Positions 3,907-47,143 of a DNA stretch of 64,000 nt are shown here, piece after piece. Numbering within the stretch: position 1 is the first letter of the stretch; each line of letters opens with the position of its first letter. Position numbers and translations under genes: made by a program. The notes below the pieces were generated by a model, which saw nothing but the letters and a program-made list of their open reading frames with translations, made no database searches and was not told the origin of the DNA. Source of the stretch: Elusimicrobiota bacterium (GTDB taxonomy: Bacteria; Elusimicrobiota; Elusimicrobia; FEN-1173); assembly GCA_016721625.1 (NCBI GenBank), contig JADKHR010000001.1, positions 1,967,225 through 2,031,224 on the forward strand, read 5' to 3'.

Positions 3907-3926
3907 ACATTGAAAGGGAGTCACCT

Positions 3927-22874: not shown

Positions 22875-23903
22875 ATGGAAAAGTCTTTTGTTCCCTTGGG
22901 GTGGTTGCCTCAAGAACACGTCGTCCAAATCAGCGCGGATTACGTCGAGGTTCTTGGCACCGATCGAATCGATAACGTGGAAAAACGTCTAGGTCCGTCG
23001 TATCAGGCGTACCGCGCGAACTGGACGTCACGGCCGCGATCGCAAATCGTGGGCGATTATCCCCTCCATTTGGATGTGGAATGCACGGCCGTTTGCAACC
23101 TTCGTTGCACCATGTGTCAAATCCCCTTTGATACGATGCCCTCCGGGTTGATTTCCCCAGGCCTCTTCAAGAAGATCATGGACGAAATTAAGCTGAGCAA
23201 AGCCGACCTTCCCTCCGTGAAATTTAATTTTCGCGGGGAACCCACCCTCCATCCTCAGATAGCGGAATTTGTCCGCTTGGCTCGGGAGTCGGGAATTATG
23301 GATGTCCAGTTCAACACGAACGGGACCATGCTGAACGAAAAACTTTCCAAGGACCTTATCTCCGCCGGTCTGGTGCGCATCAAATTTTCTTTGGACAGCA
23401 TGAATCCTTCCCTCTACAACAGCGTTCGGAAAGGCGCCGACTACAAAAAAACGTTAGGGCACATCCTTGATTTTTTGAGAATTCGAAATGAGCTTGGATC
23501 GGCTTTTCCTTCCGTGATGGTCCAAATGGTTTTCATGTCCATGAACCAAAATGAACTCATGGATTACATCCATTTCTGGCAGGACAAGGTCAACCGGATT
23601 GGGATTTCACGCTACCGCTCCGGCAACAATGAGTCCGGAGAGGACGCCCAGGTGAATGTTCCAGTGCAAACCGAACGGTTCCCTTGCCCCCAGCTATGGC
23701 AAAGGCTGGTCATCCTTTTTGACGGCACGGTGCTGATGTGTTGCGGAGATCACCACAGCAAAAATCCTATCGGGGATATCAAAACCCGTTCAATCCGTGA
23801 CATTTGGCACAGTCCGGAGCTCTCCGCCATGAGACGATTACATTCGGAACACCGGTATGATGAAATAGAGGCGTGCAAGGGTTGTCAAATCAACTGTCGT
23901 TGA
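22875..23903 (+). CDS. radical SAM protein with C-terminal SPASM/twitch-like Cys cluster
   Basis: CxxxCxxC motif in ...ECTAVCNLRCTMCQ...; C-terminal cysteine-rich region ...CPQLWQRLVILFDGTVLMCCGDHH...ACKGCQINC. Confidence 0.8.
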   Translation: MEKSFVPLGWLPQEHVVQISADYVEVLGTDRIDNVEKRLGPSYQAYRANWTSRPRSQIVGDYPLHLDVECTAVCNLRCTMCQIPFDTMPSGLISPGLFKKIMDEIKLSKADLPSVKFNFRGEPTLHPQIAEFVRLARESGIMDVQFNTNGTMLNEKLSKDLISAGLVRIKFSLDSMNPSLYNSVRKGADYKKTLGHILDFLRIRNELGSAFPSVMVQMVFMSMNQNELMDYIHFWQDKVNRIGISRYRSGNNESGEDAQVNVPVQTERFPCPQLWQRLVILFDGTVLMCCGDHHSKNPIGDIKTRSIRDIWHSPELSAMRRLHSEHRYDEIEACKGCQINCR

Positions 23904-23999
23904 CGGCGGGTTTTCGGGCGGAGAGAATGAGGAAAAGGTCGACGAAACATCGGTCGGGCCGGGGGTGGTGATTTGAAATTGGCGAACAGGTCGGGGGCG

Positions 24000-24572
24000 A
24001 TGAAAACGAAATACCTGGTTGGCCGGCGCGTTACGCTCGGGCTGATTTCGCTCCGGGCCGATTTGTCCCACTACGCGGATTGGGTCAATGACCGCGAAAC
24101 GACCCAATTTATGGCGGTCGGGCGGTTCCCCGTGACGCTCGGCGAATTGCGGGCCTACGTCCGCCAGTATGCCGTCGACAAAACTGGCCTCTTGCTGGGT
24201 ATTTTTCTAAATAAATCAAAACGACACATTGGAAATATCACGTTGAACGACATACAATGGAAGGATCGGCGCGCGGAGGTCGGCGTTCTCATCGGGGAGA
24301 AGCCGTTCCGCGGCAAAGGTTACGGCCGGGAGGCCATCGAGCTCATTGTCGAGCATGCGTTCGGGTGGCTTAATTTACACAAGTTGTCTTGCGGGATGGT
24401 CGAGGGCAATGAGGCCTCTCGCCGGGCATTTATGCGGATCGGTTTTAAGGAGGAAGGGTTTTTGCGCCGTCATGTTTTTGTGGACGGTTCCTACCTGGGT
24501 TGTTACCGCCTGGGTTTATTGCGGGAAGAGTATGCAAAAACATTGCAACCAAAATTGAAACGAAGGGAATAA
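24000..24572 (+). CDS. GNAT-family N-acetyltransferase
   Basis: ATG 24000 in frame of ORF 23973-24572; acetyl-CoA binding-like segment …RGKGYGREAIELIVEHAFGWLNLHKL…. Confidence 0.65.
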   Translation: MKTKYLVGRRVTLGLISLRADLSHYADWVNDRETTQFMAVGRFPVTLGELRAYVRQYAVDKTGLLLGIFLNKSKRHIGNITLNDIQWKDRRAEVGVLIGEKPFRGKGYGREAIELIVEHAFGWLNLHKLSCGMVEGNEASRRAFMRIGFKEEGFLRRHVFVDGSYLGCYRLGLLREEYAKTLQPKLKRRE

Positions 24573-26550: not shown

Positions 26551-28053
26551 ATGGCCGGCATGGAAGTTGAAAAGAAGTTAATAACGAACTCGTTTTTCTA
26601 TGTTTTGCCGAAATTTGCCGGAATCGGCATTAACATAATGACGCTACCGATATTAACGAGGATTTTGAGCCCCCAGGATTTCGGGGCCGTGGCCATGGCC
26701 ACGGTGTTTTCAACCTTTGCCGTGGGGATTTTTTCATGGGGTTTGCCGATCGCGGTCCAGCGGTATTTTTTCGAATACCGAAGAGACCCCGTTCGGCTGG
26801 GTCGATATCTTTTCACGTGCCAATTTTTTCTGCACTTGGTCCTGCTCGTTTCTTCCGCGCCCATCTATATTTTCAGGAACGCCTTTTCAACGTTGTTCAT
26901 AGGAAACCCAGGGTACGGAAACGCATTTTTTACGTTTTACGTATCGACTTTTTTCTTCTTCATCCTCAACGTGTACTTAACGACGTTACAGAACTTTGAA
27001 AATGCGAAAGTCCATTCGTTTTTCACGATATTCCATGCCGTTGTTTTAGGCGGTCTCAATGTGACGTTAAGTTTTTCGTTTAAAGATTACACCGGCTTGA
27101 TGTACGCTTCAATCGCAAGTTCTTTTGGGGTCTCCGCCCTATGCACGTTATATTTTTTTAAATATTTTCGAAACGTTTTAAGTTTTGAAATGCTCAAAGA
27201 AAGTCTGGTTTACGGGGCCCAAAACATTCCGAAATCATTCACCGGTTTCATAGGGAGGTTTTTTGACAAGTACCTGATCAACAAAGTCCTCACGTTGCAG
27301 GCCGTGGGTGTTTATAACATCGGGCAGTCGCTTGGGAATTCATCGATTTCTTTATTAAACACCATATGGTCCTCTTTTCAACCCTTGTGTTATCGACAGG
27401 TGTTTGATCAGGGACCGAAGGCGAGCCGGCCCGTTGGACGATTGTTCTCCTATTTTCTCTTCGCCACCGCGAGCCCGTTGCTTCTTGTTCTATTGTTTTC
27501 TTCCGAAATCGTCCGTCTCCTGGCTCCCCCGGCCTACCAGCCCGCGGTGGACGTGATTATGATTTTTCTTTGCGCCATGTCGACGAACATATTTGGAATG
27601 TACGTAGGGGTTCAGTATGCCTACGCGAAAAAGCCGCTGTATATTGTTCTCGCCACAACGATGGGAACATTGGTCAATGTCGGCATGAATTTGTTGTTGA
27701 TTCCACGCTGGGGTTTGGTGGGGGCTTCTTTGGGGGCGTTGGTTTCCTACGCGACCATCAACGGACTGCTGACCGTTATTGGTCAGTCTCTTTATCGAAT
27801 ACATTACGAATGGGGGTTTGTGGCGTGCGTCTATGGAATCATCGGGCTCAGCACCTTGGCAGGCCTTCTAATGCGCGCCACGCAAATATCCTATGGCGTT
27901 CAACTCTGCCTTAAGATTTGCTTATTTGGTGCCTTGATCTTCGCGGGTTCCCGTTGGAAGGTCGCGACGATGGATACGGCACGAAAGATCGTCCGGTTGT
28001 TAAAACCTCAAAAGGGGCTCAGTCCGGAATTTCGCCCCGTCTCGCCTCATTAG
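26551..28053 (+). CDS. Wzx-type oligosaccharide flippase (polysaccharide biosynthesis protein, MOP superfamily)
   Basis: 500-aa very hydrophobic multi-pass membrane protein typical of Wzx/polysaccharide transporter family. Confidence 0.7.
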   Translation: MAGMEVEKKLITNSFFYVLPKFAGIGINIMTLPILTRILSPQDFGAVAMATVFSTFAVGIFSWGLPIAVQRYFFEYRRDPVRLGRYLFTCQFFLHLVLLVSSAPIYIFRNAFSTLFIGNPGYGNAFFTFYVSTFFFFILNVYLTTLQNFENAKVHSFFTIFHAVVLGGLNVTLSFSFKDYTGLMYASIASSFGVSALCTLYFFKYFRNVLSFEMLKESLVYGAQNIPKSFTGFIGRFFDKYLINKVLTLQAVGVYNIGQSLGNSSISLLNTIWSSFQPLCYRQVFDQGPKASRPVGRLFSYFLFATASPLLLVLLFSSEIVRLLAPPAYQPAVDVIMIFLCAMSTNIFGMYVGVQYAYAKKPLYIVLATTMGTLVNVGMNLLLIPRWGLVGASLGALVSYATINGLLTVIGQSLYRIHYEWGFVACVYGIIGLSTLAGLLMRATQISYGVQLCLKICLFGALIFAGSRWKVATMDTARKIVRLLKPQKGLSPEFRPVSPH

Positions 28054-28073
28054 ATGGAATAGGGAGAATCCCA

Positions 28074-29077
28074 TTGGGTCGTCAAAAATTTCAATTTCCG
28101 CTCCTCATCGCAGAGGTTGCCAATTCACACGGGGGTTCTCGTCCGTATCTTTTCCAACTGACCAAGAGGCTGCTGGCTACGAGCGTCCCTGCCGTTAAAT
28201 TTCAATGCATCGTGGCGGATGATTTTTTGACCCCCGCTCACCCCCAATACGAGCTATTCAAGTCCTTTGAATTTCCGCCGACCGTATTTTCCACGCTGGT
28301 GCGGCTCATCCATGGGGCAAGGAAAAAGGCGTATTTTGACGTTTTCGGCGACATCTCGTTGGCGGCGGCGGATCGGGTCGGCGCCGACGGTTTTAAAATC
28401 TATGCCAGCGACATCGGCAATAATCCTTTCATTGAAAAGGTCCTCTCGATCGGAAAGCCGGTCTTGATCTCAGTGGGGGAGCGACGCTGAGCGAAATCGA
28501 CGAGATTGTTAAAATATGTTCGGGAAAACAGTTCTGTCTCTTGGTGGGGTTTCAAGCGTTCCCTACTCCGATCGAGGAATCCAACGTGGGGAAAATTAAA
28601 TTCCTAAGAGAACGATACGGTTGTTCCGTCGGATACATGGATCATTCTCCGGCCATTGACCCTTTCTCGGAATTTGTCCCTTGTTTGGCGGTTGGGCAAG
28701 GGGCCTGTTGCATCGAAAAACACGCGTATCTTAAAGCCAGGAAGACCTTGTATGATTGGCAATCGGCGTTCGACCCCTCCCAGTTTGAAACGCTCGCTCA
28801 CCGCCTTAAGAAGGCTCAGTCCGCGTTGGGGACAACGTTCTTTCCCCTTTCTTCTTCTGAACAGGCTTACTCCCGCTCAAAGCGGAAAATCATTGTCGCG
28901 GCCGATCCGATCGACCAAGGAGTTCGGATCCTCCCCAAGAACATCATGGGCCGATGCGCCCATCTTTCTTCGAGGACCTCGTTTTTCACACTCAACCAGT
29001 CCGGCCACGTGGTCGGTCGAGTGGCTCGAAAAAATATCCAACGGTTCGAGGTGATCTCGCCGGACATTTTAAGATGA
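28074..29077 (+). CDS. NeuB-family nonulosonate/ulosonate synthase paralog 1 (one frame change)
   Basis: TTG 28074 after AGGGAGA RBS; N-terminal ...PLLIAEVANSHGGS...AVKFQ...; continues after a frame change at ~28470 (ISVG / GGATLSEIDEIVKICSGKQFCLLVGFQAFPTP...MDHS...IEKH...). Confidence 0.7.
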
Positions 29078-29811
29078 AAGAGATTATTGGGTTGGTCGCC
29101 GTGCGCATGGCTTCCAGGCGGCTCCCAAAAAAGGCTTTTCGGACCATCGCTGGAAAACCGATTCTTCGAATCCTCGTGGACCGGTTACGAACATCGGGAC
29201 TCGATGATTTTGTGGTTTGCACCACCACCGCGGACGAGGACAAAGAGATAGAATCATGGTGTTCCTCCAACGGGGTCCGCTGTTTTCGCGGTGATTCGGA
29301 CAATGTGCTGAGGCGGTTTGTCCGCTGTGTCTCGACAAACCCCGCCGCGTATATCGTCCGAATTACGGGAGACAATCCTTTTACCGATTTTCTGTCCATG
29401 CGGGAGATGTTCGTCGAGATGAAACAAAACAAGGCCGATTACGCCCGGCAGGTGGGTGTGCCCCTGGGGGCCGCCTGTGAAATCGTTCGGACCTCCGCCC
29501 TGGAAGAGCTTCACCGGCGCGCCCGCACGCCCGAACTAAGCGAGTTCATGACCTACTTTTTCGAGCTCGCTCCTTTTATACGGAAGCAGTTCTTCCATGT
29601 GCCGGAAAATATTCGGATGCCGCAATTGCGGCTGACCATCGATTATGAATCGGATGTCCAATTCGCGAACGCTCTCGTCGATCATTTTCATGGTCGGATT
29701 CCCTCGTTGGAGGAAATTGTTTCCCACTGCGTTCAACGGTCGGATTATCCGCTCGTGAAAGAAGATGCGGCGGCTTCGGATGAAATTAAAAAGAAGATAC
29801 TCATTGATTAA
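29074..29811 (+). CDS. cytidylyltransferase (CTP_transf_3 / SpsF-PseF-like CMP-sugar synthetase)
   Basis: ATG overlaps previous stop (ATGA); MKEIIGLVAVRMASRRLPKKAFRTIAGKPIL... and ...RITGDNPF... motifs. Confidence 0.7.
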   Translation: MKEIIGLVAVRMASRRLPKKAFRTIAGKPILRILVDRLRTSGLDDFVVCTTTADEDKEIESWCSSNGVRCFRGDSDNVLRRFVRCVSTNPAAYIVRITGDNPFTDFLSMREMFVEMKQNKADYARQVGVPLGAACEIVRTSALEELHRRARTPELSEFMTYFFELAPFIRKQFFHVPENIRMPQLRLTIDYESDVQFANALVDHFHGRIPSLEEIVSHCVQRSDYPLVKEDAAASDEIKKKILID

Positions 29812-29823
29812 TGGGGGAGCCTG

Positions 29824-30881
29824 ATGGGTGGAATTCGGTTCCAACACGGCGCCGCTATCGGCGACGGGGTTCACTGTTTCATCATGCTCGACGCGGGGGT
29901 CAATCACAACAACGATGTCGGGCGAGCCAAAGAACTTATTCGATCCGCCAAGGCCGGAGGCGCGGACGCTATTAAATTCCAGACCTACAGTGCGGAGGAG
30001 ATCAGCACGAAAAAAGCCGCTCGGTATTGGGATCCGAAACTGGACACGGACGGGGGGGGGACCCAATTCGAAATGTTCGCGCGGGTGGATGACTTGCCGA
30101 AAAAGCGTATTTTGGACTCAAAGAGTATGCCCAGGAACAAGGGATCCTTTTTTCTTCATCCCCTTTCGGCATGGACAGCGCCCGATTTTTGAAGAAACTG
30201 GGGGTCGATTTCTTTAAGATCGCCTCAGCGGAGATTACAAACTTGCACCTGATTGAATTCATCGCCGACTGCGGAAAGCCGATTGTTCTGTCGACGGGGG
30301 CGGCCTCCATTGGGGAAGTGGAGAAAGCCATTGACGTCATTCACCGGACAGGCCTTCGAGAGATCGCGCTTCAGCATTGCGTGCTGAGTTATCCGTGCAA
30401 GGATGATGACGCGAATCTGGCCAAAATGGTCCGGTTGAAGCAGATTTTTCCGGACATCCCCATCGGGTATTCCGACCATACCTTTGGGGCGGAAGTGCCG
30501 TTGGCTGCGGTGGCGTTGGGGGCGCGTTCGATTGAAAAGCATTACACCTTGGACAGCCGTCTCCCCGACAGTCCCGATCATAAATTCGCCCTGACGAGCG
30601 ACGAACTGGGGGATTTCGTAAAACGTTGTCGGAGGGTGGAAAAATCAATCGGCACCTACCGGAGCGGACATTACGCGGCGGAGGAGAAAGCCTATCAACT
30701 CGCACGCAAGAGCCTGGTGGCCGTCCGTCGAATTAAGAAGGGCGAAAGGATCACGGATCGAGCCGTTTCCTGCAAGCGGCCCGGGACCGGCATTTACCCC
30801 GAGTTTTTGGGGGTCATCGTGGGGAGAACGGCCAAAAAAAACATCGAACCGGACGAGCTACTCTCGTGGGACATGTTTTAG
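29824..30881 (+). CDS. NeuB-family nonulosonate/ulosonate synthase paralog 2 (one frame change)
   Basis: N-terminal ...CFIMLDAGVNHNNDVGRAKELIRSAKAGGADAIKFQTY...; frame change at ~30101 (A5 run; one more A gives ...LPKKAYFGLKEYAQEQGILFFSSPFGMDS...); middle ...GKPIVLSTGAASIGEVEKAIDVI...GYSDHT...IEKHYTLD... Confidence 0.7.
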
Positions 30882-30982
30882 AAGGATCCTCATGGGCTTT
30901 GGGTTCTCTCGTTCCGGCGGGATGGGTCGTTCGCGGCGTTTAAAATATTCAACGAATTCTAACGTTGCCTTTTGGAGCCAAA

Positions 30983-31978
30983 ATGAAAAACATGTTTGAG
31001 GGGAAAACCGTTTTGGTCACGGGGGGGACGGGATCTTTCGGGAAGATGTTTACGTCGATTTTCCTGAAGCGGTTTCGCCCCGAGAAACTGATTATCTTCA
31101 GTCGGGACGAGTACAAACAATCTGAAATGGCAAAAACGTTTCCCATCGAGAAGTTTCCCGTGAGGTATTTCATCGGAGACGTCCGGGATCACGACCGGTT
31201 ATTCCGCGCGTTCGATGGGGTGGATTATGTCGTGCATGCGGCGGCGCTTAAGCAAGTGCCGGCTCTTGAATACAATCCCACCGAGGCGGTGAAGACCAAC
31301 GTCACCGGGGCGGACAACATCGTCGAAGCGGCCGTGGATCGAGGGGTAAAAAAGGTGATCGCTCTCTCCACCGACAAGGCCGTCAACCCCATCAATCTTT
31401 ACGGGGCGACGAAACTTGTGGCGGAAAAGATTTTCGTCGCCGCCAACGCATACACCGGGAATAAGACCAAATTCTCGGTGGTGCGTTACGGGAACGTCGT
31501 CGGTTCCCGGGGAAGCGTTATTCCCTTGTTTGCCGATCTTAAGAAACGGGGCGTGAAGGAGTTCCCCATCACCGATGAGAAAATGACTCGATTTTGGATC
31601 GGTTTGGGGGCAGGGGTTGACCTCGTTTTGCGTGCGCTCGAAGAGGCCGAAGGCGGCGAACTTTTTGTGCCCCGCATCCCCTCCATGAGGATAACCGACT
31701 TGGCGCGGGCTGTGGATCCGGAGTGCACGTTTAAGAAGTTGGGCATACGTCCAGGGGAAAAACTGCATGAAACCCTCATTTCCGAAGACGAGGCGCGAAG
31801 CACAAAACAAGTCGGTGATTTCTACGTCGTTTTGCCGCAGTTCATGATCAGCGCCGCCCTCGATTCAAAATATGATCCGTTCGAATTCGTGAAAAATGTT
31901 TTTTCCTACCGGAGCGATACCAACGATCGGTGGCTCGATATCGCGTCTTTAACCGCGATGATTTCGCAGAATGAATAG
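30983..31978 (+). CDS. pseB: UDP-N-acetylglucosamine 4,6-dehydratase (inverting), PseB/FlaA1-type SDR
   Basis: MKNMFEGKTVLVTGGTGSFGK... N-terminus, YGATK catalytic motif, ~330 aa; followed by DegT aminotransferase. Confidence 0.8.
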   Translation: MKNMFEGKTVLVTGGTGSFGKMFTSIFLKRFRPEKLIIFSRDEYKQSEMAKTFPIEKFPVRYFIGDVRDHDRLFRAFDGVDYVVHAAALKQVPALEYNPTEAVKTNVTGADNIVEAAVDRGVKKVIALSTDKAVNPINLYGATKLVAEKIFVAANAYTGNKTKFSVVRYGNVVGSRGSVIPLFADLKKRGVKEFPITDEKMTRFWIGLGAGVDLVLRALEEAEGGELFVPRIPSMRITDLARAVDPECTFKKLGIRPGEKLHETLISEDEARSTKQVGDFYVVLPQFMISAALDSKYDPFEFVKNVFSYRSDTNDRWLDIASLTAMISQNE

Positions 31979-31990
31979 GGCCCTCTTTCC

Positions 31991-33133
31991 TTGATCCCTT
32001 ACGGAAAGCAATCGGTCACCCGTGCGGATGTGCAGGCGGTGGCCTCCGCCCTTCGTTCGGACTGGCTGACCCAGGGTCCTCGGGTGGGCGATTTTGAAAA
32101 AGCGTTGTGCCGCTACACCGGAGCGCGCCACGCCGTGGCGGTTTCAAGCGGCACCGCCGCGTTGCATCTCGCGATGCTTTCTCTGGGGGTCGGTCCCGGG
32201 GAAACCATCCTCACTTCCCCCATCACTTTTGCGGCGAGCGCCAACTGCGCGTGTTATGTCGGGGCGCGACCGCATTTTATCGATATTGACCCTAAAACCT
32301 ACCAGATGAGCGCGGAACGCCTGGAGGAGTATCTCCGGGTTGAATCTCGCAGGAGAAAAGTGCGAGTCATTATCCCTGTGCATTTTATGGGGACGGTTCC
32401 GGACGTCCGGGCGTATTCCCAAATCGGCGCGCGCTACGGCATTCCCGTTGTGGAAGATGCGGCACACGCTCTGGGGGCGGCCTATGAGCACAAAGGAGCC
32501 CAGGTTCGCGTTGGTTCTGGCTTTCATGCCGATGTGAGTATTTTAAGTTTCCATCCCATAAAACATATTACAACCGGTGAAGGCGGGGCCCTGCTCACCA
32601 ACAATAAGCGCATCTACGAACGGGCGCGTCGTATGAGGCATCATGGGATTACAAAGGACCCTTCTCGGCCGCGATGGTTTTACGATATCCCTGAGCTGGG
32701 TTACAACTATCGCCTAACGGATTTCCAGTGTGCGTTGGGGTTGTCTCAGTTGTCCCGCATTGAACAATTCCGCAAAGCGCGGTACGCGCTTGTTCAGAAA
32801 TATAATTCGGCGTTCAAAAGGATTCCGGAAATAATTCTCCCATTTGAAAGACCAGGGACAACCCCCTCTTATCATTTGTACGTCATTCAGGTCCCGCCCA
32901 AAAAGCGCCAGGCGTTGTACGACCATCTTTTTGGAAAGGGAATTGGAACGCAGGTCAACTATATCCCCGTTCACCTGTTTTCGTTTTACAAAAGACAATT
33001 CGGATATCGTCTTGGAGATTATCCGAACGCCGAGAGGTACTACCAGCGATGTTTAAGTCTGCCTTTGTTTCCTGGATTATCCTCTTCGGAACAGGAATAT
33101 ATCATCAAACAGGTCCAAGGATTTTTTCGATGA
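31991..33133 (+). CDS. pseC: DegT/DnrJ/EryC1/StrS-family sugar aminotransferase (PseC-like)
   Basis: 380-aa ORF with PLP-dependent sugar aminotransferase features (…AVSSGTAALHLAM…, …SFHPIKHITTGEGGAL…); immediately downstream of pseB. Confidence 0.7.
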   Translation: MIPYGKQSVTRADVQAVASALRSDWLTQGPRVGDFEKALCRYTGARHAVAVSSGTAALHLAMLSLGVGPGETILTSPITFAASANCACYVGARPHFIDIDPKTYQMSAERLEEYLRVESRRRKVRVIIPVHFMGTVPDVRAYSQIGARYGIPVVEDAAHALGAAYEHKGAQVRVGSGFHADVSILSFHPIKHITTGEGGALLTNNKRIYERARRMRHHGITKDPSRPRWFYDIPELGYNYRLTDFQCALGLSQLSRIEQFRKARYALVQKYNSAFKRIPEIILPFERPGTTPSYHLYVIQVPPKKRQALYDHLFGKGIGTQVNYIPVHLFSFYKRQFGYRLGDYPNAERYYQRCLSLPLFPGLSSSEQEYIIKQVQGFFR

Positions 33134-33137
33134 CGCG

Positions 33138-34016
33138 ATGTTGAACGCCGACAGGATCTGCCTCGGTACGGTCCAATTGGGTCTACCTTACGGGATCGCC
33201 AACCGGGGAGGACAACCCGACCTCCCCGCCGCTTTCTCGATCCTTGACGCCGCGCATCAAAGCGGGATCTCCCTGCTGGACACCAGCCGCGCCTACGGAA
33301 CCAGCGAGGAGGTCATTGGGTCCTTCGCCGAAAAGATGGGGAGGTCTTTCCAGGTCATTTCGAAATTGCCGCCCCATCCGAATTGTTCTCGTCTGAGCGT
33401 CTCGGGGTTTCTGAAGGAATCGTTAACCCGGTTGCGGGCCCCCTTTCTTCAAGGATACCTCATTCACGATTTCAAAACGTATCGCGACCACCCGGAAGTT
33501 TGGGATTTCCTGTTGGGACTGAAAAACGACCATCTGGTTAAACAAGTCGGTTTTTCCGTCTATTTCCCCAGAGAGGTTGAACTCTTTCTGGCGCAGGGGA
33601 TTTGCCCGGATATTGTCCAAATTCCGTTCAGTGTTTTGGATACCCGATTTGCGCCGCTCCTTTCGGAGTTGAAACAAAGGTCCGTGGAAGTTCACGCCCG
33701 ATCGGTCTTTTTGCAGGGCGCTGTATTCCTCCCGGAGGAGAAGCTGACGGGGGCTCTCCAAAAGGCGGCGGCCTCGATTCGAAGACTCCGTGAACTGTCT
33801 TCACAGACGGGGGTCCCGGTGCTCGATCTTTGCCTGCGGTTCGTGGTGGCGCACGAAACCATTGATCGGATCGTCCTGGGGGTCGATTCGGCGGCTCATT
33901 TGCGGACCAACGTCGCGGCGCTCGGAAACCCTTTTGAAGATTCCGCTCTATCGGCAGAATTACGACAACTGGCTGTGAATGAGGAGAAGGTCGTGGTTCC
34001 CTCCCTCTGGACCTGA
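33138..34016 (+). CDS. aldo/keto reductase family oxidoreductase
   Basis: 292-aa ORF; ...LGTVQLGLPYG... and ...LLDTSRAYGTSEEVIG... typical of AKR family. Confidence 0.7.
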   Translation: MLNADRICLGTVQLGLPYGIANRGGQPDLPAAFSILDAAHQSGISLLDTSRAYGTSEEVIGSFAEKMGRSFQVISKLPPHPNCSRLSVSGFLKESLTRLRAPFLQGYLIHDFKTYRDHPEVWDFLLGLKNDHLVKQVGFSVYFPREVELFLAQGICPDIVQIPFSVLDTRFAPLLSELKQRSVEVHARSVFLQGAVFLPEEKLTGALQKAAASIRRLRELSSQTGVPVLDLCLRFVVAHETIDRIVLGVDSAAHLRTNVAALGNPFEDSALSAELRQLAVNEEKVVVPSLWT

Positions 34017-34029
34017 TACAATTCGTCCC

Positions 34030-34803
34030 GTGAATACGGTCGCGATCGTCCAAGCCAGGATGTGTTCCACCCGTTTGCCGGGAAAAGTCTTATTGTCCTT
34101 GGGAGGAAAAAAGGTCTTGGAGCACGTGGTGGGAAGAATCCGCCGTGCCCGATTGGTCCGCGACGTGGTCGTCGCCACCACGATCCAGGAGGAGGATTTG
34201 GAGATCGTCAGGTTTTGCGCCGAAAACAAGATCCGCGTTTATGTGGGTTCGGAACAGGACGTTCTCGATCGTTACTATCAGGCGGCCCGGTTGTTCCACG
34301 TCGACCACGTGGTGAGAATCACGGCGGATTGTCCTGTTATCGACCCCCGCATTATCAATCGGGTGATCGCCCGCCATTTGGCCAGCCGCTCCGACCTGAC
34401 CGCCAACATACTTCGAGAAACCTTTCCCGACGGCCAGGATGTCGAGGTGTTCACTTTTTCGGCCTTATCGCGAGCATGGAAGGAGGCCAAGTTGGCCTCT
34501 CAGCGGGAGCACGTGACTCCCTACCTGAAGGACCATCCGACCCTCTTCAAGCTGACCAATGTCGCGTGCAGGGAAAACCTCGGAAAAATGAGATGGACTC
34601 TTGATAACAAGGAAGACTTTTTATTCTTGAAACATATTTTCAACGCTCTTTACGACAAAAAGAAAATATTCGGAATGGAGGATATACTCCGTTACTTGAG
34701 AACACATCCCGAAGTGGAAAAGATCAACGGACTCCTTGAGCGAAACGAGGGTTATAAGAAATCCCTCCGGCAAGACCGTCCGGTGGGAACGGAATGGCGA
34801 TAA
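34030..34803 (+). CDS. cytidylyltransferase (CTP_transf_3 family), second copy
   Basis: GTG 34030; ...NTVAIVQARMCSTRLPGKVL... and ...RITADCPVIDP... motifs. Confidence 0.7.
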   Translation: MNTVAIVQARMCSTRLPGKVLLSLGGKKVLEHVVGRIRRARLVRDVVVATTIQEEDLEIVRFCAENKIRVYVGSEQDVLDRYYQAARLFHVDHVVRITADCPVIDPRIINRVIARHLASRSDLTANILRETFPDGQDVEVFTFSALSRAWKEAKLASQREHVTPYLKDHPTLFKLTNVACRENLGKMRWTLDNKEDFLFLKHIFNALYDKKKIFGMEDILRYLRTHPEVEKINGLLERNEGYKKSLRQDRPVGTEWR

Positions 34804-34825
34804 CGAAAAAGGATGATGGGGCCCT

Positions 34826-36136
34826 ATGAACAAAACCCAATCGTTGTATAAGAAGGCCAAGGAATTAATTCCGGGGGGAACCCAGCTGTTTTCAAAACGG
34901 CCGGAACTCTACTCTCCCGGTTTATGGCCGGCCTATTTTTCCAAGGCGCGCGGTTGTCTCGTTTGGGATCTTGATGGAAAATGCTACGTCGACATGGCGT
35001 CCATGGGAATCGGATCCTGTCTTCTGGGTTATGCAGATCCGGACGTAAATGCGGCCGTTTCCAGGGTGGTGCGCGCCGGGAACATGAGCACGCTGAACGC
35101 CCCGGAAGATGTGGAATTGGCCAAACTCTTGGTATCTTTGCACCCGTGGGCGGACATGGCGCGATTTGGGCGCGGCGGCGGCGAAGCCATGTCGATGGCC
35201 GTGCGGATTGCCCGCGCGAGGACGGGGCGCGACCGAGTATTGTTCTGCGGTTACCACGGATGGCATGATTGGTATTTGGCCGCCAATGTGGCTGATAAAA
35301 AATCTCTGGACGGACATCTCCTTCCCGGCTTGAACCCCGCGGGTGTCCCTCGCGCTCTTCGGGGAACGGCCGTTCCGTTCACCTACAATGACACCGTTGG
35401 TTTTAGGAAACTCATCAAAGATGGAAAACGAAAAATCGGCGCGGTTATTCTTGAATCCATTCGCGGAGTGAAACCCGAAGGCGGTTTCCTGGCCGCCGTT
35501 CAAGAGGAGACTCGCGCCATCGGCGCTGTGTTAATTGTGGATGAAATAACCGCCGGTTTTCGGCTGACCGTCGGCGGAGCGCACTTACTCTTTAAGCTTA
35601 AACCCGATTTAGCGGTGTTCGCCAAGGGGATGAGCAACGGGTACCCCATGTCCGCCGTGATCGGGGTCGCGGACGTTATGCAGGCCGCCCAGGATTCCTT
35701 TGTGAGCAGTACCTATTGGACGGAAAGAATAGGGCCGAGCGCGGCCATCGCGACCATAAACAAGATCAAACACCTCCACATCCCGGGAAGGCTCTGCCGG
35801 ATCGGCAGGGAAGTGCAGGCCGGATGGAAGACCGCGGCTCACCGGCACGGGGTGGATATCTCCGTGGCCGGAATGGATTCGCTTTGCCACTTCAGCTTTA
35901 ACCGGGGGGATCCTTTACTGCTGAAGACGCTTTTCACGCAATTCATGCTGGAAGAGGGATTCCTCGCATCGAACGCGTTCTATGCGAGTTTTGCGCATAA
36001 GGAAAAACATATCGGGAACTATTTGGCCTCCGCCGATAAAGCCTTTTTCAAAATAGGGAAAGCCTTGCGAAGCGGCACGGAACGCTCCCTGCTACGCGGT
36101 CCGATTTGCACGAGCGGTTTCAAACGGTTGACGTGA
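34826..36136 (+). CDS. class-III (glutamate-1-semialdehyde aminomutase-like) PLP-dependent aminotransferase
   Basis: 436-aa ORF; ...GGTQLFSKRP...; ...LIVDEITAGFRLTVGGAHLLFKLKPDLAVFAKGMSNGYPMSAV... Confidence 0.75.
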   Translation: MNKTQSLYKKAKELIPGGTQLFSKRPELYSPGLWPAYFSKARGCLVWDLDGKCYVDMASMGIGSCLLGYADPDVNAAVSRVVRAGNMSTLNAPEDVELAKLLVSLHPWADMARFGRGGGEAMSMAVRIARARTGRDRVLFCGYHGWHDWYLAANVADKKSLDGHLLPGLNPAGVPRALRGTAVPFTYNDTVGFRKLIKDGKRKIGAVILESIRGVKPEGGFLAAVQEETRAIGAVLIVDEITAGFRLTVGGAHLLFKLKPDLAVFAKGMSNGYPMSAVIGVADVMQAAQDSFVSSTYWTERIGPSAAIATINKIKHLHIPGRLCRIGREVQAGWKTAAHRHGVDISVAGMDSLCHFSFNRGDPLLLKTLFTQFMLEEGFLASNAFYASFAHKEKHIGNYLASADKAFFKIGKALRSGTERSLLRGPICTSGFKRLT

Positions 36137-36189
36137 GTTTGCCCGTGTCTATTGAAATTCCGGGCATCGCGTGGCAAGCGGGATAGCTG

Positions 36190-36547
36190 TTTTCCTTTAA
36201 AGGGGTTCCTATTGGCCGACCTCAATAAGCAACAATTTTGGGATGAAAAGATTATCGGTTGGAAAAGCGACAAATACGCCCTTCCGCGGGATGGTTCCGT
36301 CGTCTGGTGGATGTCAATCAATCCCTCAAGAACAGGCACCTCCTCGCGCAAAATGTCCTCCGCCAGGTGGTGAAGGGAAAGTCGGTATTGGAAATCGGCT
36401 GTGGGACGGCCCGATTGCTTCCTTCGATCATGAATGACGGCGCGACGAAATAGGTGGGCGTGGATAATTCAGATGTGGCGTTGAAAAGGACGGCGGGACG
36501 TCTCTTGGGAAAATACCCGAAGGCGAGGTCGGACGGTAACGGCTAAC
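36190..36547 (+). pseudogene. remnant of class I SAM-dependent methyltransferase (N-terminal part only, frame-shifted)
   Basis: Motif I ...VVKGKSVLEIGCGTARLLPSIM... followed in another frame by YVGVDNSDVALKRTAGRLLGKYPKARSDGNG then stop; remainder of fold absent. Confidence 0.3.
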
Positions 36548-36799
36548 GCCGTTGAGATCAAGCCTATCCCCGCTTTCAATCGATATAAATGAAGGGGTTA
36601 AACTGACGCTTTTGAAGAGGACCATTGTGTTAGGTCACGAGTTCGGCAGCGCGCAGCGCTGCTGAACGGGAGATATAGCTCGCGGCGGCGCGGACATTGA
36701 AGGGTTCATACTGGAGGCCGGGAAGAAATGTTAATGGGAGACTTCCCTTCTTCTGACGGATGGAAAATGAAATCCTAAGGCGGAACAAAAGGGAAACCA

Positions 36800-41761: not shown

Positions 41762-42793
41762 ATGGCGTCGCTGGGCGCCGTCCTCGTTAAGGGACCGATG
41801 CCCCCACCCAAGCCCCCTTTGTTTGGGGAATCCATCACGATGGCGGTGGTCATCCCGGCCTATAACGCGGAGGACTTTATTGCCCGTTGTTTGGAGAGCG
41901 TTTACTCTCAATCCCGGCCTCCTGACGAAATCATTGTGGTGGACGACGGGTCCACCGATCATACGCCCGATTTGCTTGAAAAGGGGGGAGGTCGAGTAAA
42001 AGTCCTTCGCACCCGAAACAACGGATTGGCGGCCGCGCGAAATGCGGGGTTTTCTCTAACCCAATGCCGATACGTGGCGTTCCTTGACGCCGATGACTAT
42101 TGGCCGTCTCATAAGTTGGAAGTTTACAATGATTACGCCCGCCGTTATCCCCGGGTGGGTTTGTTTTACAGCGATTATTATTGTTTTAGGTCAGAGAAAG
42201 TGTATCGCCGCGTTCGCGCGGGGGCTCCAGGCTCAAACCCCTTCTTCCAAATGTTAAAATACAATTGCGTGGCTTCCTCCGCCGCCATGGTCGACAGGGA
42301 TGTCTGGCAACGTGTGGGGGGGCTCCGAGGAGGCTTCTCTCATCCCGCCGGGGTGGTGGATTGGGATTTCTTTCTGAAAGCCGCGCAAGTGACGCCCTTT
42401 CAGTATATTCCCGAGCCCCTTATGTTCTACCGGGTGCACGAAAAAAGCGCGATGCAGACGAGGCAGGAAGCCATGTGGAAAGATTCCGTCCGCGTGGTCC
42501 TTTGGCATTCAAAAAACAATTCTGTTCCGCTCCAAGTGAAAAAGGAGGCCCTCGCGGCCCTCTTTTATCAAAGCGGTCTGCGGTGGTTGACGGCTGGATT
42601 TCCGAAAAAGGCCCGCGATCATTTTTTTCGCAGTCTGAGGTTTTCTTTTGGATCTTCCCCGAGCGCCGTTCTTTTTTTGGTTTCCCTGGGTGGGGCGAGA
42701 GTCATTTCTTCATTGTTGGCCCTCCGTCGTTACCTGTCTCGACTGTTCACTCTGGTTTCAAAATCCAACGATGGGTCACGGGGATGGAGTTGA
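41762..42793 (+). CDS. glycosyltransferase family 2
   Basis: ...MAVVIPAYNAEDFI..., ...IIVVDDGSTDHT..., ...FLDADD...; possible true start at ATG 41840. Confidence 0.75.
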   Translation: MASLGAVLVKGPMPPPKPPLFGESITMAVVIPAYNAEDFIARCLESVYSQSRPPDEIIVVDDGSTDHTPDLLEKGGGRVKVLRTRNNGLAAARNAGFSLTQCRYVAFLDADDYWPSHKLEVYNDYARRYPRVGLFYSDYYCFRSEKVYRRVRAGAPGSNPFFQMLKYNCVASSAAMVDRDVWQRVGGLRGGFSHPAGVVDWDFFLKAAQVTPFQYIPEPLMFYRVHEKSAMQTRQEAMWKDSVRVVLWHSKNNSVPLQVKKEALAALFYQSGLRWLTAGFPKKARDHFFRSLRFSFGSSPSAVLFLVSLGGARVISSLLALRRYLSRLFTLVSKSNDGSRGWS

Positions 42794-44321
42794 AGCCTTC
42801 CCCGCCTCCTTTGGCGGTTCGAGCGGATGCTGGGCCCGCCATGGGGACTGGGCATATGATGCGTTGTATCGCGCTGGGGCAGGCTTGGCGCGCTTTGGGA
42901 GGCCGGGTCGTTTTTCTAACGGCGAACAGCCTTCCCTCTCTTTTGTCTCGAATACCTGGAGGGATTTCGTCATTCCCCTTTTGACGGTTCGAGCCGGCGG
43001 CCGGTCGGACGCTGTCAAAACGGCGGACGCGGCGCGGAGGTTCGGGGCTCGCTGGGTCGTGGTCGATGGATATCATTTCGGGCCCGGCTATCGAGAGATT
43101 TTGCAAAAAAGCGGATTTCGCGTTTTGTGGGTTGACGATCTCGGCAGTTCCGAGAATTGTTTTTCAGACATTGTTGTGAATCAAAACCTTCACGCCAAGC
43201 CGAACCTTTATCCTCGCCGTGAGGCCCGCCCCCGGTTGATGTTAGGGTCCCGCTACGCGTTGTTGCGAAACGAGTTCTCCGCTTTCCAGCGGCGATCCGC
43301 TCGGCATTCAACAGTGAAACGAATATTGGTTTCGGGCGGGGGAACCGATCCTAAAAACATAACGAGAACCGTTCTGAAGGCCTTGGCGAATGTTCCGGCT
43401 CCTCGGTTTGAGATCGACGTCCTTCTTGGCGGAGGGTATCGTAAGGCGTGGTCCCTCGCCGGATGGGCACGCCGGGCGGGTGTTCATCGGGTTCACGTTC
43501 ACAAAAACCCAAGAAATATCGCTTTTCTGATGTCTCGTGCCGACCTGGGAATCCTGGCGGCCGGATCCACTTGTTTGGAAATCGCTCGATTGGGGCTTCC
43601 GGCTATTCTCGTGGCCCAATCTGACAACCAAACCAACATCGCCCATTCAATGCATCAAGAGGGTGCCGCCTGGAGCCTGGGGTCCATCGCTTCCTTGTCG
43701 GTAGGGGAAATCCGGGATCGAGTCGAATGGTTGGCGCGATCGCCATCGGTTCGTAAACGAATGTCTCTAAGAGGAAAACGGCTCGTTGATGGAAAAGGGG
43801 CCAAGCGCGTGGTGGCCATGATGCAGGACATGGCTTCGCCAAGGGTTCCCTTTGTTCTTCGACGCGTCCGTCCCTCCGACTGTCGAAGGTTGTGGAATTG
43901 GGCGAACGACCCGGCCGCCCGCGCGGCAAGTTTTTCTGAAACCCGTATTCCATGGGGGCCCCACCAGGCCTGGTTTAAGGAACGACTTAATAATTCCCAT
44001 TGTGTTATTTTCGTTGCCGTTCTTCGACAGGGGAAATCCATTGGAAGTGCGCGTTTTGAACGCCGAAAGATCGGTTGGGTGATTTCCGTTTTTGTCGAGA
44101 GGACCTATCGTGGGCAAGGGCTTGGATCCAGTCTCATCCGAACGGCGGCATGCGCGTTCATGAGGGACACCGGAGAAAAGGTTGTGAACGCTTATGTGAA
44201 GCCCACCAACGGCGCTTCTCTCCAAGCTTTCCTTCGAGCGGGGTTTCGTCAAAGGGCGAAAACGCGCATTTCAAACACTCCGGCCTATTGGTGTGTGTTA
44301 ACCACGGAAGATTGTCAATGA
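42784..44321 (+). CDS. pseG: bifunctional PseG-like UDP-sugar hydrolase / PseH-like GNAT acetyltransferase (one frame change)
   Basis: N-terminus ...LAVRADAGPAMGTGHMMRCIALGQAW... (PseG-like) in frame 1, continuing after a frame change at ~42950 in frame 0 (...WVVVDGYHFGPGYREILQKSGFRVLWVDDL...); C-terminal GNAT domain ...FVERTYRGQGLGSSLIRTAACAF... Confidence 0.65.
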
Positions 44322-45417
44322 ACGAACCCACAGCGATCCGCGATCGGAACGTTGGAGACGGGAACCCGGTCTACATCGTGGCGGAGATGTCGGCGAATCA
44401 CGGGGGGGACTATTCCAGGGCTGTGAGAATACTGCAGGAGGCCAAGACCGCCGGGGCTGACGCGGTCAAACTTCAGACCTACACGGCCGATACCCTCACG
44501 ATAAAATCCGAGCAGGACTGTTTTCGAATCGGCCATGGTTCTTTGTGGGAAGGAAAGCGGCTTTACGACCTCTATCAGGAGGCGTACACCCCTTGGGAGT
44601 GGCATCCGAAGCTGAAGGAAGTGGCCCGACGCTTGGGTTTGGATCTTTTCTCCTCGCCCTTTGACGCCACCGCCGTGGAATTTTTGGAAACAATGGATGT
44701 TCCTTGTTATAAGATTTCGTCATTCGAGATCATCGATATCCCGTTGATCCGGCGCGTGGCGCGAACCGGAAAGCCCATGATCCTGTCAACGGGAATGGCC
44801 ACCCGGGAGGAAATTGACGAAGCGGTGCGCGAAGCCCGCACCCACGGAGCCCGTGGGATCGTTCTTCTTAGTGTCAGCGCCTATCCGGCGCCGGCAGAGG
44901 AAATGAATCTTCGCGCCATTCCGCGCCTCTCCCATGATTTCGGCTTTCCGGTGGGATTATCGGACCATACGCTTGGATCGGCCGCCCCCGTGGCCGCCGT
45001 TGCGTTGGGGGCCTGTCTCATGAAAAACACTTTACGCTTTCCCGTTCGTTTGCCGGTCCGGATAGTTCGTTTTCAATGGAACCCACGGAGTTCAAGGCCA
45101 TGGTGGAAGCTGTTCGTGGAACGGAGAAAGCTCTCGGAAAATCTGATTACGTTTTGGGGGAGAAAGAGAAGGCGAGTCGCGCTCTCCGGCGCTCTCTGTT
45201 TGTGGTCCAAGAGATGGCGTCGGGCGACGTTTTCACCGAGACCAACGTCCGTTCCATTCGGCCGGCGAACGGGTTGCCTCCCCGTCATTACGCGGAGGTG
45301 TTGGGCCGCCGCTCGACGCGTGGGATACAACGCGGGACGCCGTTGACGTGGGACCTTGTGGAAAAAATAGGGGATGGAATGATCAAAGATACGGGGAAAT
45401 CCAGGAGCGAAAAATGA
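44318..45417 (+). CDS. pseI: pseudaminic acid synthase-like NeuB-family enzyme (PseI-like), one frame change
   Basis: ...VYIVAEMSANHGGDYSRAVRILQEAKTAGADAVKLQTY...GKPMILSTGMAT...GLSDHTLG...; frame change at ~45032 (ctcatgaaaaacac); then ...EKHFTLSRSFAGPDSSFSMEPTEFKAMVEAVRGTEKALG... with SAF-like C-terminus. Confidence 0.75.
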
Positions 45418-47137: not shown

Positions 47138-47143
47138 CCCATC

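Follow-up and report, generated by a model that had tools for sequence, protein, structure and literature searches.

Pseudaminic acids (Pse) are bacterial sugars that resemble sialic acids. They are found on flagella, capsules, LPS and S-layers, where they affect motility, recognition by the immune system and the attachment of phages. The textbook pathway towards the activated sugar consists of six enzymes, i.e., PseB, PseC, PseH, PseG, PseI and PseF. A longer arrangement has been described in the Group I polar-flagellin islands (subgroups IA–IE) of Aeromonas, where the genes are ordered as pseB-pseC-[aldo('alpha')/keto reductase]-pseF-[class III aminotransferase]-pseG-(pseH)-pseI (Forn-Cuni et al., 2021, PMC7874193). 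The glycan of Aeromonas AH-1 has a mass of 403 Da, for which the formula ranked highest by the authors is C19H32O9 with an additional mass left unexplained (PMC4691044). In Vibrio, an aldo/keto reductase is fused to a cytidylyltransferase, in a cluster that has the reductase without an aminotransferase (PMC7371886).

Other systems are informative on the activating enzyme. The FlmA-B-H-D-NeuB-FlmC set of Caulobacter crescentus was enough to glycosylate flagellin in E. coli (PMC7591256), and in Bacillus subtilis spsF is required for the transfer of legionaminic acid (PMC7439481). Literature on these systems yielded no direct enzymology of FlmC or SpsF. In the biosynthesis of Kdo8N, an aminotransferase step is reportedly carried out by KdnA. 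KdnB from Shewanella is an oxidase acting on a 2-keto-3-deoxy sugar acid in the same pathway (PMC5125639).

The locus described here lies in a surface-glycan island of an Elusimicrobia MAG, of which a stretch of 64 kb was analyzed (hereafter, the window). A co-oriented block is opened by pseB (30965..31978, + strand), encoding the inverting UDP-GlcNAc 4,6-dehydratase (TIGR03589, 485.6 bits; cutoff 407.75) and sharing 84% identity with its ortholog in the related locus L088. It is followed by pseC (31991..33133, +), which encodes the DegT family UDP-4-amino-4,6-dideoxy-AltNAc transaminase (TIGR03588, 460.1 bits; cutoff 423.5) and is the only DegT match in the window. Directly after pseB-pseC comes a trio of genes encoding an aldo/keto reductase of 292 aa (AKR; 33138..34016, +), a cytidylyltransferase of the CTP_transf_3 family (CTPb; 34030..34803, +) and a class-III pyridoxal phosphate (PLP) aminotransferase of 436 aa that resembles glutamate-1-semialdehyde (GSA) aminomutase (AT; 34826..36136, +). 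The coordinates stated before for the trio (33138–36136) coincide exactly with boundaries in the ORF list of the window, all on the + strand. The longest CTPb ORF spans 33979–34803 (ATG at 33979, 274 aa), and the GTG at 34030, which fits the orthologs and aligns with residue 1 of CTPb in L088, is the likely true start. The five genes are separated by spacers of 4–22 nt, and a promoter and terminator scan of 30.8–36.9 kb gave no signal above shuffled expectation, which is compatible with a single transcription unit. The trio genes are real and intact, far beyond chance, and their folds are placed by sequence-level PDB matches. An earlier note had placed these three protein types between pseC and a B12-binding radical SAM gene (36800–39013), outside the canonical Pse pathway. 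ORFs and Pfam agree with this placement, and the three genes are indeed extra to the six-enzyme set.

The Pse set of the window is completed downstream by a PseG-like hydrolase fused to a PseH-like GNAT (42648..44321, +; TIGR03590, 139 bits, cutoff 153.6), with the GNAT domains at aa 403–539. Besides this fusion, the window holds one further GNAT (23973–24572), two in total. The pseI gene for pseudaminic acid synthase (44075..45346, +; TIGR03586, 329 bits, cutoff 340) carries a frameshift near 45020; its match spans only profile positions 2–220 of 327, while the C-terminal SAF part runs on in another frame. Directly 3′ of the aminotransferase, L088 has a SAM-methyltransferase gene (MT1, 225 aa). 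A tblastn search with MT1 located a frameshifted, shortened remnant in the window (36221..36513, +), with aa 1–23 at 36221–36289 and aa 24–101 at 36289–36513 in the other frame. A second remnant (36477..36764, +) corresponds to the C-terminal end of a 745-aa L088 protein, unk745 (tblastn, aa 657–741, 36% identity), and marks a deletion of the MT2, GT and YdjC genes in the lineage of the window.

CTPb matches PF02348 with 115.7 bits (E 3.5e-33) and, judged by homology, is of the FlmC/SpsF type, not of the PseF type. The HMM of the CTPb family aligns with Caulobacter FlmC over positions 14–243 of 266 (254 bits), and FlmC shares 36% identity with CTPb of the window (148 bits). The PseF model TIGR03584 (cutoff 205.7 bits) does not match CTPb at E<1e-3, and reaches only 20 bits with CTPa, the other CTP_transf_3 protein of the window. 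A canonical PseF of this type is absent from the 64 kb. Conversely, the true PseF ORFs in L007, L011 and L021 score 262–280 bits on TIGR03584 and only 25–36 bits on the CTPb HMM. The best solved relative of CTPb is PDB 6OEW (134 bits), on which a literature search found nothing. CTPb is the only CTP_transf_3 protein among the Pse genes within the window. Elsewhere, a full set of pse genes often has no other CTP_transf_3 within ±10 kb, and in Saganbacteria, Methanoregula and Pseudosulfitobacter, for example, CTPb is the sole one in the analyzed surroundings of the pse genes. CTPb is therefore the probable CMP-activating enzyme of the operon itself, i.e., a CMP-pseudaminate synthetase. In L021, a canonical PseF (262 bits; cutoff 206) is located between AKR and aminotransferase, in the slot of CTPb. 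CTPb and canonical PseF occur together in L007/L087 (277 bits) and L011 (280 bits), and in such cases the substrate of CTPb may be a different one. FlmC-type enzymes are named "glycosyltransferase family protein" by PGAP, a likely annotation trap, as it makes FlmC-type loci seem to be devoid of PseF.

The AKR matches Aldo_ket_red PF00248 with 102.8 bits (E 2e-29; gathering score 24), and its catalytic tetrad D48/Y53/K76/H110 is kept in at least 95% of 31 homologs. The nearest PDB entry scores only 43 bits. KidO (NF011432) is the best NCBIfam name, at 100.7 bits compared to an equivalog cutoff of 244; given this score and the intact tetrad, a KidO-like regulatory role was rejected.

AT has the fold-type I class-III architecture (PF00202 Aminotran_3, 134.3 bits, E 6e-39). 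Its best NCBIfam matches are GSA-aminomutase models, in line with the GSA-aminomutase-like class-III identity proposed before, and all score far below cutoff: PRK06209, the best model with that name, gives 235 bits (cutoff 486) and hemL TIGR00713 gives 197.9 bits (equivalog cutoff 527.3). JGI also annotates AT homologs as GSA aminomutase. The PLP lysine K267 (14 sequences), the region of which aligns with the lysine region of the T. thermophilus aminomutase, and R25 are invariant. R25 coincides in the alignment with the conserved SPVR-motif Arg of the T. thermophilus enzyme, a residue that we take to be the binder of the substrate carboxylate; an acidic substrate, for instance a nonulosonate, would agree with such a role. 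The solved relatives of AT, at about 30% identity and 113–141 bits, include aminoglycoside C-6′ aminotransferases (7LLD) and FumI (6HBS), which are aldehyde/ketone aminators. AT is the most conserved member of the module. Its family of 436 aa has at least 60% identity across phyla and is represented in no fewer than 600 species-level genomes, both bacterial and archaeal. As the exact AT sequence of the window has no match in the contig index, the context of AT was drawn from homologs. AT is found inside pse operons in all three annotated distant loci and in most of the 80 species-genome loci that were surveyed.

To count neighbors, the 60 surveyed loci with at least 3 kb on both sides of AT were used. 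A CTP_transf_3 gene lies within 3 kb of AT in 42 of these (37 of the CTPb type), usually inside pseB/C/G/H/I operons, and in 34 of those 42 an AKR or Gfo/Idh/MocA oxidoreductase is present as well. Counting against one conserved module, 18/60 loci are without a nearby cytidylyltransferase and 8/42 without a recognizable oxidoreductase. AKR is present within 3 kb of AT in 26/60 loci and Gfo/Idh/MocA in 12/60, with both in only one; the Gfo identity was confirmed in nine out of ten tested loci and in L087. The slot is thus occupied by AKR or Gfo/Idh/MocA as alternatives. The order PseB-PseC-AKR-CTP-AT is kept in a Methanoperedenaceae archaeon, in a Saganbacterium and in an 82%-identical relative. 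The three-gene block, for which a search in other Pse/Leg loci had been proposed, recurs in comparable nonulosonate loci across many phyla of Bacteria and Archaea. Minimal operons consist of PseB, PseC, Gfo, CTPb, AT, PseG/H and NeuB (L026, L029, L059, L017, L018), hence of the six canonical activities with only two extras, the oxidoreductase and AT. Moreover, CTPb is fused to AT in three lineages, i.e., Saccharibacteria (L020), Pseudosulfitobacter (WP_089422657.1) and Pseudothauera, and to NeuB in L065. Most AT loci keep PseC next to AT. One locus, L092, contains AKR, Gfo and SDR while the aminotransferase is absent; like the Vibrio cluster (PMC7371886), it has AKR without AT, which speaks against the pairing of both enzymes. 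Solitary AT loci are interleaved with nonulosonate-linked clades in an NJ tree instead of forming one separate clade, and neighbor clustering (16/21 loci without a nearby nonulosonate gene) revealed no neighbor that they share. These two observations neither define nor exclude a second function.

On balance, we read the trio as one conserved module in a variant Pse operon, in which CTPb activates the sugar while AKR and AT tailor it. This reading draws on the gene identities, the intact catalytic residues, the synteny, the replacement of components in situ, the fusions and the homology with FlmC, all of which were observed. CTPb would convert Pse, or a tailored form of it, and CTP into the CMP-sugar, fulfilling the task of PseF at this locus. 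Against this reading, neither AKR nor AT is required for activation itself, given that FlmC can do without both (PMC7591256). AKR and AT probably modify the sugar, and the alternation of AKR and Gfo in one slot points to a redox and transamination tailoring step on Pse. The oxidoreductase, AKR here and Gfo/Idh/MocA elsewhere, would generate or resolve a carbonyl group of the nonulosonate, in whose place the PLP aminotransferase would put an amino group, the two acting as a redox/transamination pair beside the activation step. The most likely outcome would be that a free hydroxyl of Pse, at C4 or C8, becomes an amine, after which the product is CMP-activated. In this scheme we infer the substrate, the modified position, the redox direction and the order relative to activation. 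AKRs are usually reductases in vivo, which makes them an awkward fit to the role of oxidizing partner. In a literature search on the function of AKR or AT in any organism, descriptive mentions were found but no biochemical or genetic data, and a search for a natural triamino nonulosonate found none in the literature covered. The more specific proposal, that the module makes a so far undescribed 4- or 8-amino (triamino) Pse by oxidation and transamination, captured by a dedicated FlmC-type cytidylyltransferase, is put forward tentatively, as a possibility with less than even chances.

Other explanations have to be weighed against such tailoring of the sugar. The earlier note had suggested that the trio makes an unusual N-acyl substituent. 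AKR and AT would then build or remodel a side chain on N5 or N7 of Pse, e.g., from lactoyl or pyruvoyl to alanyl, or from 3-hydroxy- or 3-oxo- to 3-aminobutyryl, and CTPb would activate the finished sugar. N-acyl groups such as hydroxybutyryl, glyceroyl and alanyl are known from derivatives of Pse and Leg, and the exchange of hydroxy, keto and amino groups on an acyl chain follows the same redox and transaminase logic. GNATs are present in or near many loci, including the two in the window, and are even fused to CTPb in L025 and L031. However, the minimal operons L026, L029 and L059 lack a ligase, ACP, CoA-transferase or ATP-grasp enzyme for a non-acetyl acyl group. Moreover, an AT that is more than 60% identical across phyla implies one invariant substrate instead of variable side chains, and its fusion with the cytidylyltransferase in three lineages suggests that both enzymes act on the nonulosonate core. 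The N-acyl explanation is thus disfavored and we consider it rather unlikely.

Still less probable is an action of oxidoreductase and AT before NeuB/PseI, on a hexose intermediate, where the pair would reset stereochemistry or replace PseC and yield a stereoisomer of Pse instead of an amino-Pse. Six loci (L015, L039, L043, L052, L057, L068) combine a PseB-like protein, NeuB and AT with no DegT aminotransferase in the DNA covered, and the AKR, Gfo and SDR of L092 resemble an epimerization by oxidation and reduction. Nevertheless, PseC is the neighbor of AT in most loci, the solved relatives of AT include no class-III enzymes acting on NDP-hexoses, and the fusion with the cytidylyltransferase of the last step argues for a late step.

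A second CMP-activated sugar, the other suggestion of the earlier note, would mean that the trio makes and activates another CMP- or CDP-linked compound, independently of Pse. The window contains two CTP_transf_3 genes, CTPa and CTPb, and three NeuB-like genes, and canonical PseF accompanies CTPb in L007 and L011. Yet CTPb mostly is the sole CTP_transf_3 near a complete pse set, an enzyme of the FlmC type completes the reconstituted Pse pathway (PMC7591256), and a CTPb-NeuB fusion exists. PseF can also occupy the slot of CTPb, in L021 and, by the naming in the paper, in Aeromonas (PMC7874193). In L088 as well as in the window, it is CTPa and not CTPb that is flanked by the additional NeuB genes. 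The actual second branch of activated-sugar synthesis in the window lies upstream of the trio, with a split NeuB-like gene, CTPa (28954–29811, also delimited as 29074–29811, +) and a split NeuB/NnaB-like gene (27918..30881, +), together with LegB-like and NTP-transferase genes at 45.3–48 kb. L088 keeps an intact orthologous block, NeuB(335)-CTP(245)-NeuB+SAF(372). A second CMP-sugar made by the trio is thus not supported and is considered very improbable. CTPb was also rejected as a plain redundant duplicate of CTPa, with which it shares only 28% identity and from which its conserved neighbors differ. Lastly, a true HemL and a housekeeping AKR that landed in the island by chance, the refuting case named in the earlier note and suggested by the GSA-aminomutase names in NCBIfam and JGI, is effectively refuted by scores far below every equivalog cutoff (198 compared to 527 and 235 compared to 486 bits), the lack of a tetrapyrrole-biosynthesis context, the pse synteny in Bacteria and Archaea and the fusions with the cytidylyltransferase.

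If the amino-Pse proposal holds, microbial cell surfaces would commonly carry an overlooked sugar, amino-substituted Pse, given that the module is spread over at least 600 species-level genomes of both domains. Hundreds of species have the two-enzyme add-on in their Pse operons, among them, according to literature, Aeromonas hydrophila and Legionella pneumophila serogroups 6 and 12, which implies that much environmental and some pathogen "Pse" is in fact a derivative. The loose annotation "reductase, aminotransferase" is replaced by a testable model in which AKR or Gfo as oxidoreductase, a FlmC-type enzyme or PseF as cytidylyltransferase, and a class-III aminotransferase act at the activation step. 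Cultured organisms suited to this model are Pseudosulfitobacter pseudonitzschiae, Pseudothauera nasutitermitis, Halorussus aquaticus and Aeromonas.

Compared to the canonical Campylobacter/Helicobacter pathway, the window has PseB and PseC above the equivalog cutoffs and PseG (139/154) and PseI (329/340) near them, but it lacks a TIGR03584-type PseF and has two extra enzymes between pseC and the later genes. CTPb and FlmC have the N-terminal motif QARxxSxRLPGK in common, while the FlmC and SpsF systems, as described, run without an adjacent AKR or class-III aminotransferase. With HemL, AT shares the fold, the PLP lysine and the N-terminal SPVR Arg, but it stays under all HemL equivalog cutoffs and forms a tight 436-aa family of its own in glycan loci. 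Kdo8N biosynthesis offers a functional analogy, in which an oxidoreductase and a PLP aminotransferase turn a hydroxyl of an ulosonic acid into an amine before CMP-activation by a CTP_transf_3 enzyme. This chemistry was shown for Kdo and would extend to the window module by inference; KdnB is an iron-type alcohol dehydrogenase, whereas the oxidoreductase of the module, AKR in the window and Gfo/Idh/MocA elsewhere, is without homology to KdnB. The closest resemblance is to the Aeromonas Group I islands, which have the same gene order as positions 30965–36136 of the window and are likewise low in GC. Their cytidylyltransferase is named pseF (PMC7874193) and occupies the position that CTPb has in the window. 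The Aeromonas locus lies beside flagellar genes and a Maf transferase, whereas the window represents a Wzx/glycosyltransferase polysaccharide island: the ORFs scanned with Pfam at 10–55 kb include Wzx, GT1/GT2, radical SAM, NeuB and similar proteins but no flagellar genes or Maf. Descriptively, the trio is a new member of a module whose order was already published for the flagellin islands of Aeromonas.

The three genes that the earlier note placed at 33138-36136 are indeed present as co-oriented ORFs with exactly these ends. They encode an aldo/keto reductase (AKR; 33138-34016, 292 aa; PF00248, 103 bits), a CTP_transf_3 cytidylyltransferase, here called CTPb (34030-34803; 274 aa from the first ATG, although the GTG at 34030 matches the orthologues better), and a class-III aminotransferase (34826-36136, 436 aa; PF00202, 134 bits). 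The trio is preceded by pseB (TIGR03589, 486 bits versus a cutoff of 408) and pseC (TIGR03588, 460 bits versus 423.5), with spacers of 4-22 nt throughout this run, and is followed by a B12/radical-SAM gene. The catalytic tetrad of the AKR (D48/Y53/K76/H110) and the PLP lysine of the aminotransferase (K267) are intact and conserved. None of the three proteins reaches an NCBIfam equivalog cutoff: the AKR scores 101 bits against the KidO model (cutoff 244), CTPb has no PseF match among the NCBIfam models, and the aminotransferase scores 198 bits against the HemL model (cutoff 527). This last score, together with the recurring pse synteny, upholds the view that the trio consists of non-canonical glycan genes, with no HemL among them.

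The aminotransferase family is strikingly uniform in length (436 aa), with more than 60% identity in Methanoperedenaceae, Omnitrophota, Nitrospirota, Saganbacteria and others, and at least 600 carriers are found when each species is represented by one genome. Recurrence of the block in other nonulosonate loci, raised in the earlier note, is borne out: the order PseB-PseC-AKR-CTP_transf_3-aminotransferase, followed by PseG, a GNAT and NeuB, is identical in the Pfam-annotated contexts of an archaeon and a Saganbacterium, and in an 82%-identical relative (L088) the entire layout of the window recurs with its genes intact. From 80 fetched loci, the 50 with at least 5 kb on each side were used for a first count of neighbours. 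A CTPb-type gene is present in 30 of these, in 29 cases within 1.5 kb of the aminotransferase; AKR (22), PseB (28), PseC (25) and NeuB (33) are the other neighbours.

In most loci, no CTP_transf_3 protein other than CTPb is found within ±10 kb of a full pse set. One locus (L021) has a canonical PseF (262 bits, cutoff 206) in its place between AKR and aminotransferase, and in another lacking CTPb (L063) a weaker PseF-like gene adjoins the aminotransferase; in Aeromonas, pseF has likewise been described at the cytidylyltransferase position beside the aminotransferase (PMC7874193). CTPb is also found fused to NeuB (L065), to a GNAT (L025, L031) and, in three separate lineages, to the aminotransferase, namely in a Saccharibacteria locus (L020), in Pseudosulfitobacter pseudonitzschiae (WP_089422657.1, 677 aa) and in Pseudothauera nasutitermitis (675 aa). 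The Pseudosulfitobacter fusion is the sole CTP_transf_3 protein within ±9 kb on its plasmid, where the PGAP names include pseB, pseC, pseG and pseI and no pseF. The sequence of FlmC, the Caulobacter cytidylyltransferase of the reconstituted Pse pathway (PMC7591256), came from the eLife supplement, where it is part of a synthetic operon; FlmC matches the CTPb family HMM over its full length with 254 bits, versus 25-36 bits for canonical PseF sequences, and is 36% identical to CTPb and 28% to CTPa, the other CTP_transf_3 protein of the window (28954-29811). In B. subtilis, legionaminic acid transfer needs spsF (PMC7439481). Given this sole occurrence, the PseF swap, the fusions, the FlmC homology and the role of spsF, CTPb is best read as the putative CMP-Pse synthetase of its operon rather than as a second activator. 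The step from a second cytidylyltransferase to a second CMP-sugar, taken in the earlier note, is thus most likely wrong for this gene. CTPb does occur along with a canonical PseF in some genomes (L007/L087 and L011; 277 and 280 bits for PseF), where CTPb may act on a distinct, perhaps tailored, substrate. In L087, an Endomicrobiales MAG, CTPb and the aminotransferase are immediately followed, at 11329-14632, by genes for a 601-aa TPP-dependent enzyme and a NeuB-Cupin_2 fusion of 504 aa, and the locus also contains HisH/HisF-like genes. On a plasmid of the cultured haloarchaeon Halorussus aquaticus (NZ_CP100401.1; L089 8167-8910), the FlmC/CTPb-type enzyme (295 bits against the CTPb HMM) is labelled 'glycosyltransferase family protein' by RefSeq/PGAP; through this label, such loci seem to be without a nonulosonate-activating enzyme.

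Loci without an AKR have an ORF of about 335 aa at its position, which in nine of ten tested cases encodes a Gfo/Idh/MocA oxidoreductase (Gfo); the same holds for L087 and H. aquaticus. In a second count that included a Gfo profile, 60 loci with at least 3 kb on each side were considered. A cytidylyltransferase lies within 3 kb of the aminotransferase in 42 of them, 34 of which have AKR or Gfo; over all 60 loci, AKR occurs in 26 and Gfo in 12, and both occur together once. Two unrelated NAD(P)-oxidoreductase families in one slot, almost never together, indicate that a redox step probably belongs to the job of the module. In the Pse operon of a Bacteroidia MAG (L092 4798-12740), AKR, Gfo/Idh/MocA and SDR genes stand in a row before a cytidylyltransferase and the class-III aminotransferase is absent; this operon may be a redox-only, possibly epimerising, variant.

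Sugar hydroxyls are usually turned into amines by way of a keto intermediate, with an oxidoreductase and an aminotransferase working as a pair. In Shewanella, KdnA reportedly carries out the aminotransferase step of Kdo8N formation. This pathway, in which KdnB also has a role (PMC5125639), is the nearest ulosonic-acid precedent for such a pair. The solved relatives of the aminotransferase include enzymes that aminate aldehydes or ketones, for example aminoglycoside C-6' aminotransferases and FumI, with scores similar to that of HemL. In the alignment, R25, an invariant residue of the aminotransferase, matches the Arg of the SPVR motif in GSAM. In GSAM this Arg binds the substrate carboxylate; a like role of R25 would suit a carboxylate-bearing nonulosonate, and a 4-keto-5-acylamino nonulosonate would resemble 5-aminolevulinate. 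Alternatively, AKR and aminotransferase might build or remodel an unusual N-acyl group, but this is disfavoured by minimal operons (PseB PseC Gfo CTPb aminotransferase PseG/H NeuB), which contain no gene able to build a non-acetyl acyl group. Together with the Kdo8N precedent, the aminating relatives and R25, these operons favour tailoring of the Pse backbone, in which AKR or Gfo and the aminotransferase would convert a hydroxyl (at C4 or C8) through a ketone into an amine, close to CMP-activation. Several points count against backbone tailoring. No described triamino nonulosonate was found in the literature search, and AKRs are usually reductases. AKR occurs without the aminotransferase in L092 and in Vibrio (PMC7371886), and 18 of the 60 aminotransferase loci, mostly from Planctomycetota and Acidobacteria, have no nearby cytidylyltransferase; comparison of the latter loci revealed no common neighbours, and they are interleaved in the tree.

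In this Elusimicrobia MAG, the trio sits in an island at 14-50 kb of the window with a G+C content of 0.43-0.57, most flanking sequence being at 0.58-0.65. Among the island's genes are those for a Wzx-type flippase, GT1/GT2 glycosyltransferases, radical SAM enzymes, GNATs and AsnB-like amidotransferases. The flanks carry housekeeping-type genes such as RNase E/G (2610-5354) and glycerate kinase (53517-54632), and the low G+C between such flanks would fit a glycan island that moves horizontally. A PseG-GNAT fusion (42648-44321) and pseI (44075-45346) complete the Pse set. The window contains just two CTP_transf_3 genes, a single DegT aminotransferase gene, and neither a canonical PseF nor a Gfo/Idh/MocA gene. 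Upstream of the trio, a NeuB-like - CTPa - NeuB/NnaB-like unit (27918-30881), and downstream, genes for a LegB-like dehydratase (TIGR04180, 415 bits, cutoff 475), a sugar-1-P nucleotidyltransferase and an epimerase (45348-48052), represent another nonulosonate branch.

All three NeuB-family genes carry one frameshift each: the NeuB-like gene (27918-28490 and 28541-29077) at a G5 run near 28475, the NeuB/NnaB-like gene (29824-30192 and 30171-30881) between 30093 and 30153, with G9 at 30052 and T6 at 30148 nearby, and pseI near 45020. The L088 orthologues of the first two are intact; the frameshifts are either long-read homopolymer errors in this MAG or mark real phase-variable or decaying genes. 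The 664-nt gap at 36136-36800 holds a frameshifted methyltransferase remnant (L088 MT1 aa 1-101) and the C-terminal remnant of a 745-aa protein, which implies that MT2, glycosyltransferase and YdjC genes were probably deleted relative to L088. In L088, the place of the following 'B12 radical SAM' ORF (36800-39013, 737 aa) is taken by two distinct genes that overlap, one for a KedN5-like B12-rSAM C-methyltransferase of 444 aa (75% identity) and one for a protein of 289 aa (62%); the single ORF of the window is either a true fusion or the result of an indel. An MBOAT-family gene (20118-21371) is apparently split into ORFs 20118-20717 (no Pfam match) and 20727-21371 (profile positions 160-302 only), and may be another disrupted island gene. 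A radical SAM/SPASM gene (22875-23903) recurs in Pse loci L001, L003, L005, L087 and L088 and is similar to the spirochaete 'spiro-SPASM' protein (TIGR04321, 94 bits) in the C-terminal part of the latter, to whose N-terminal part both CTP_transf_3 proteins of the window show weak matches; a further conserved tailoring step may be indicated here.

The module is already known, though uncharacterised, and the window provides a further member. The same gene order has been described in Aeromonas Group I flagellin glycosylation islands (subgroups IA-IE), where the AKR and aminotransferase genes are listed only as modifying functional groups (PMC7874193). The genes listed for the LPS loci of Legionella pneumophila Sg6 and Sg12 include CapD, DegT, a cytidylyltransferase, a "GSA aminomutase", PseG and an aryl-alcohol-dehydrogenase-like oxidoreductase, and a Vibrio cluster contains an AKR-SpsF-like fusion that was proposed to replace NeuA (PMC7371886). 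The locus itself is ordinary; it frames a widespread putative tailoring step and points to cultured test organisms. Compared with the literature found, what is new is the breadth of the distribution, the alternation of AKR with Gfo and of FlmC-type enzymes with PseF, the fusions and the link to FlmC.
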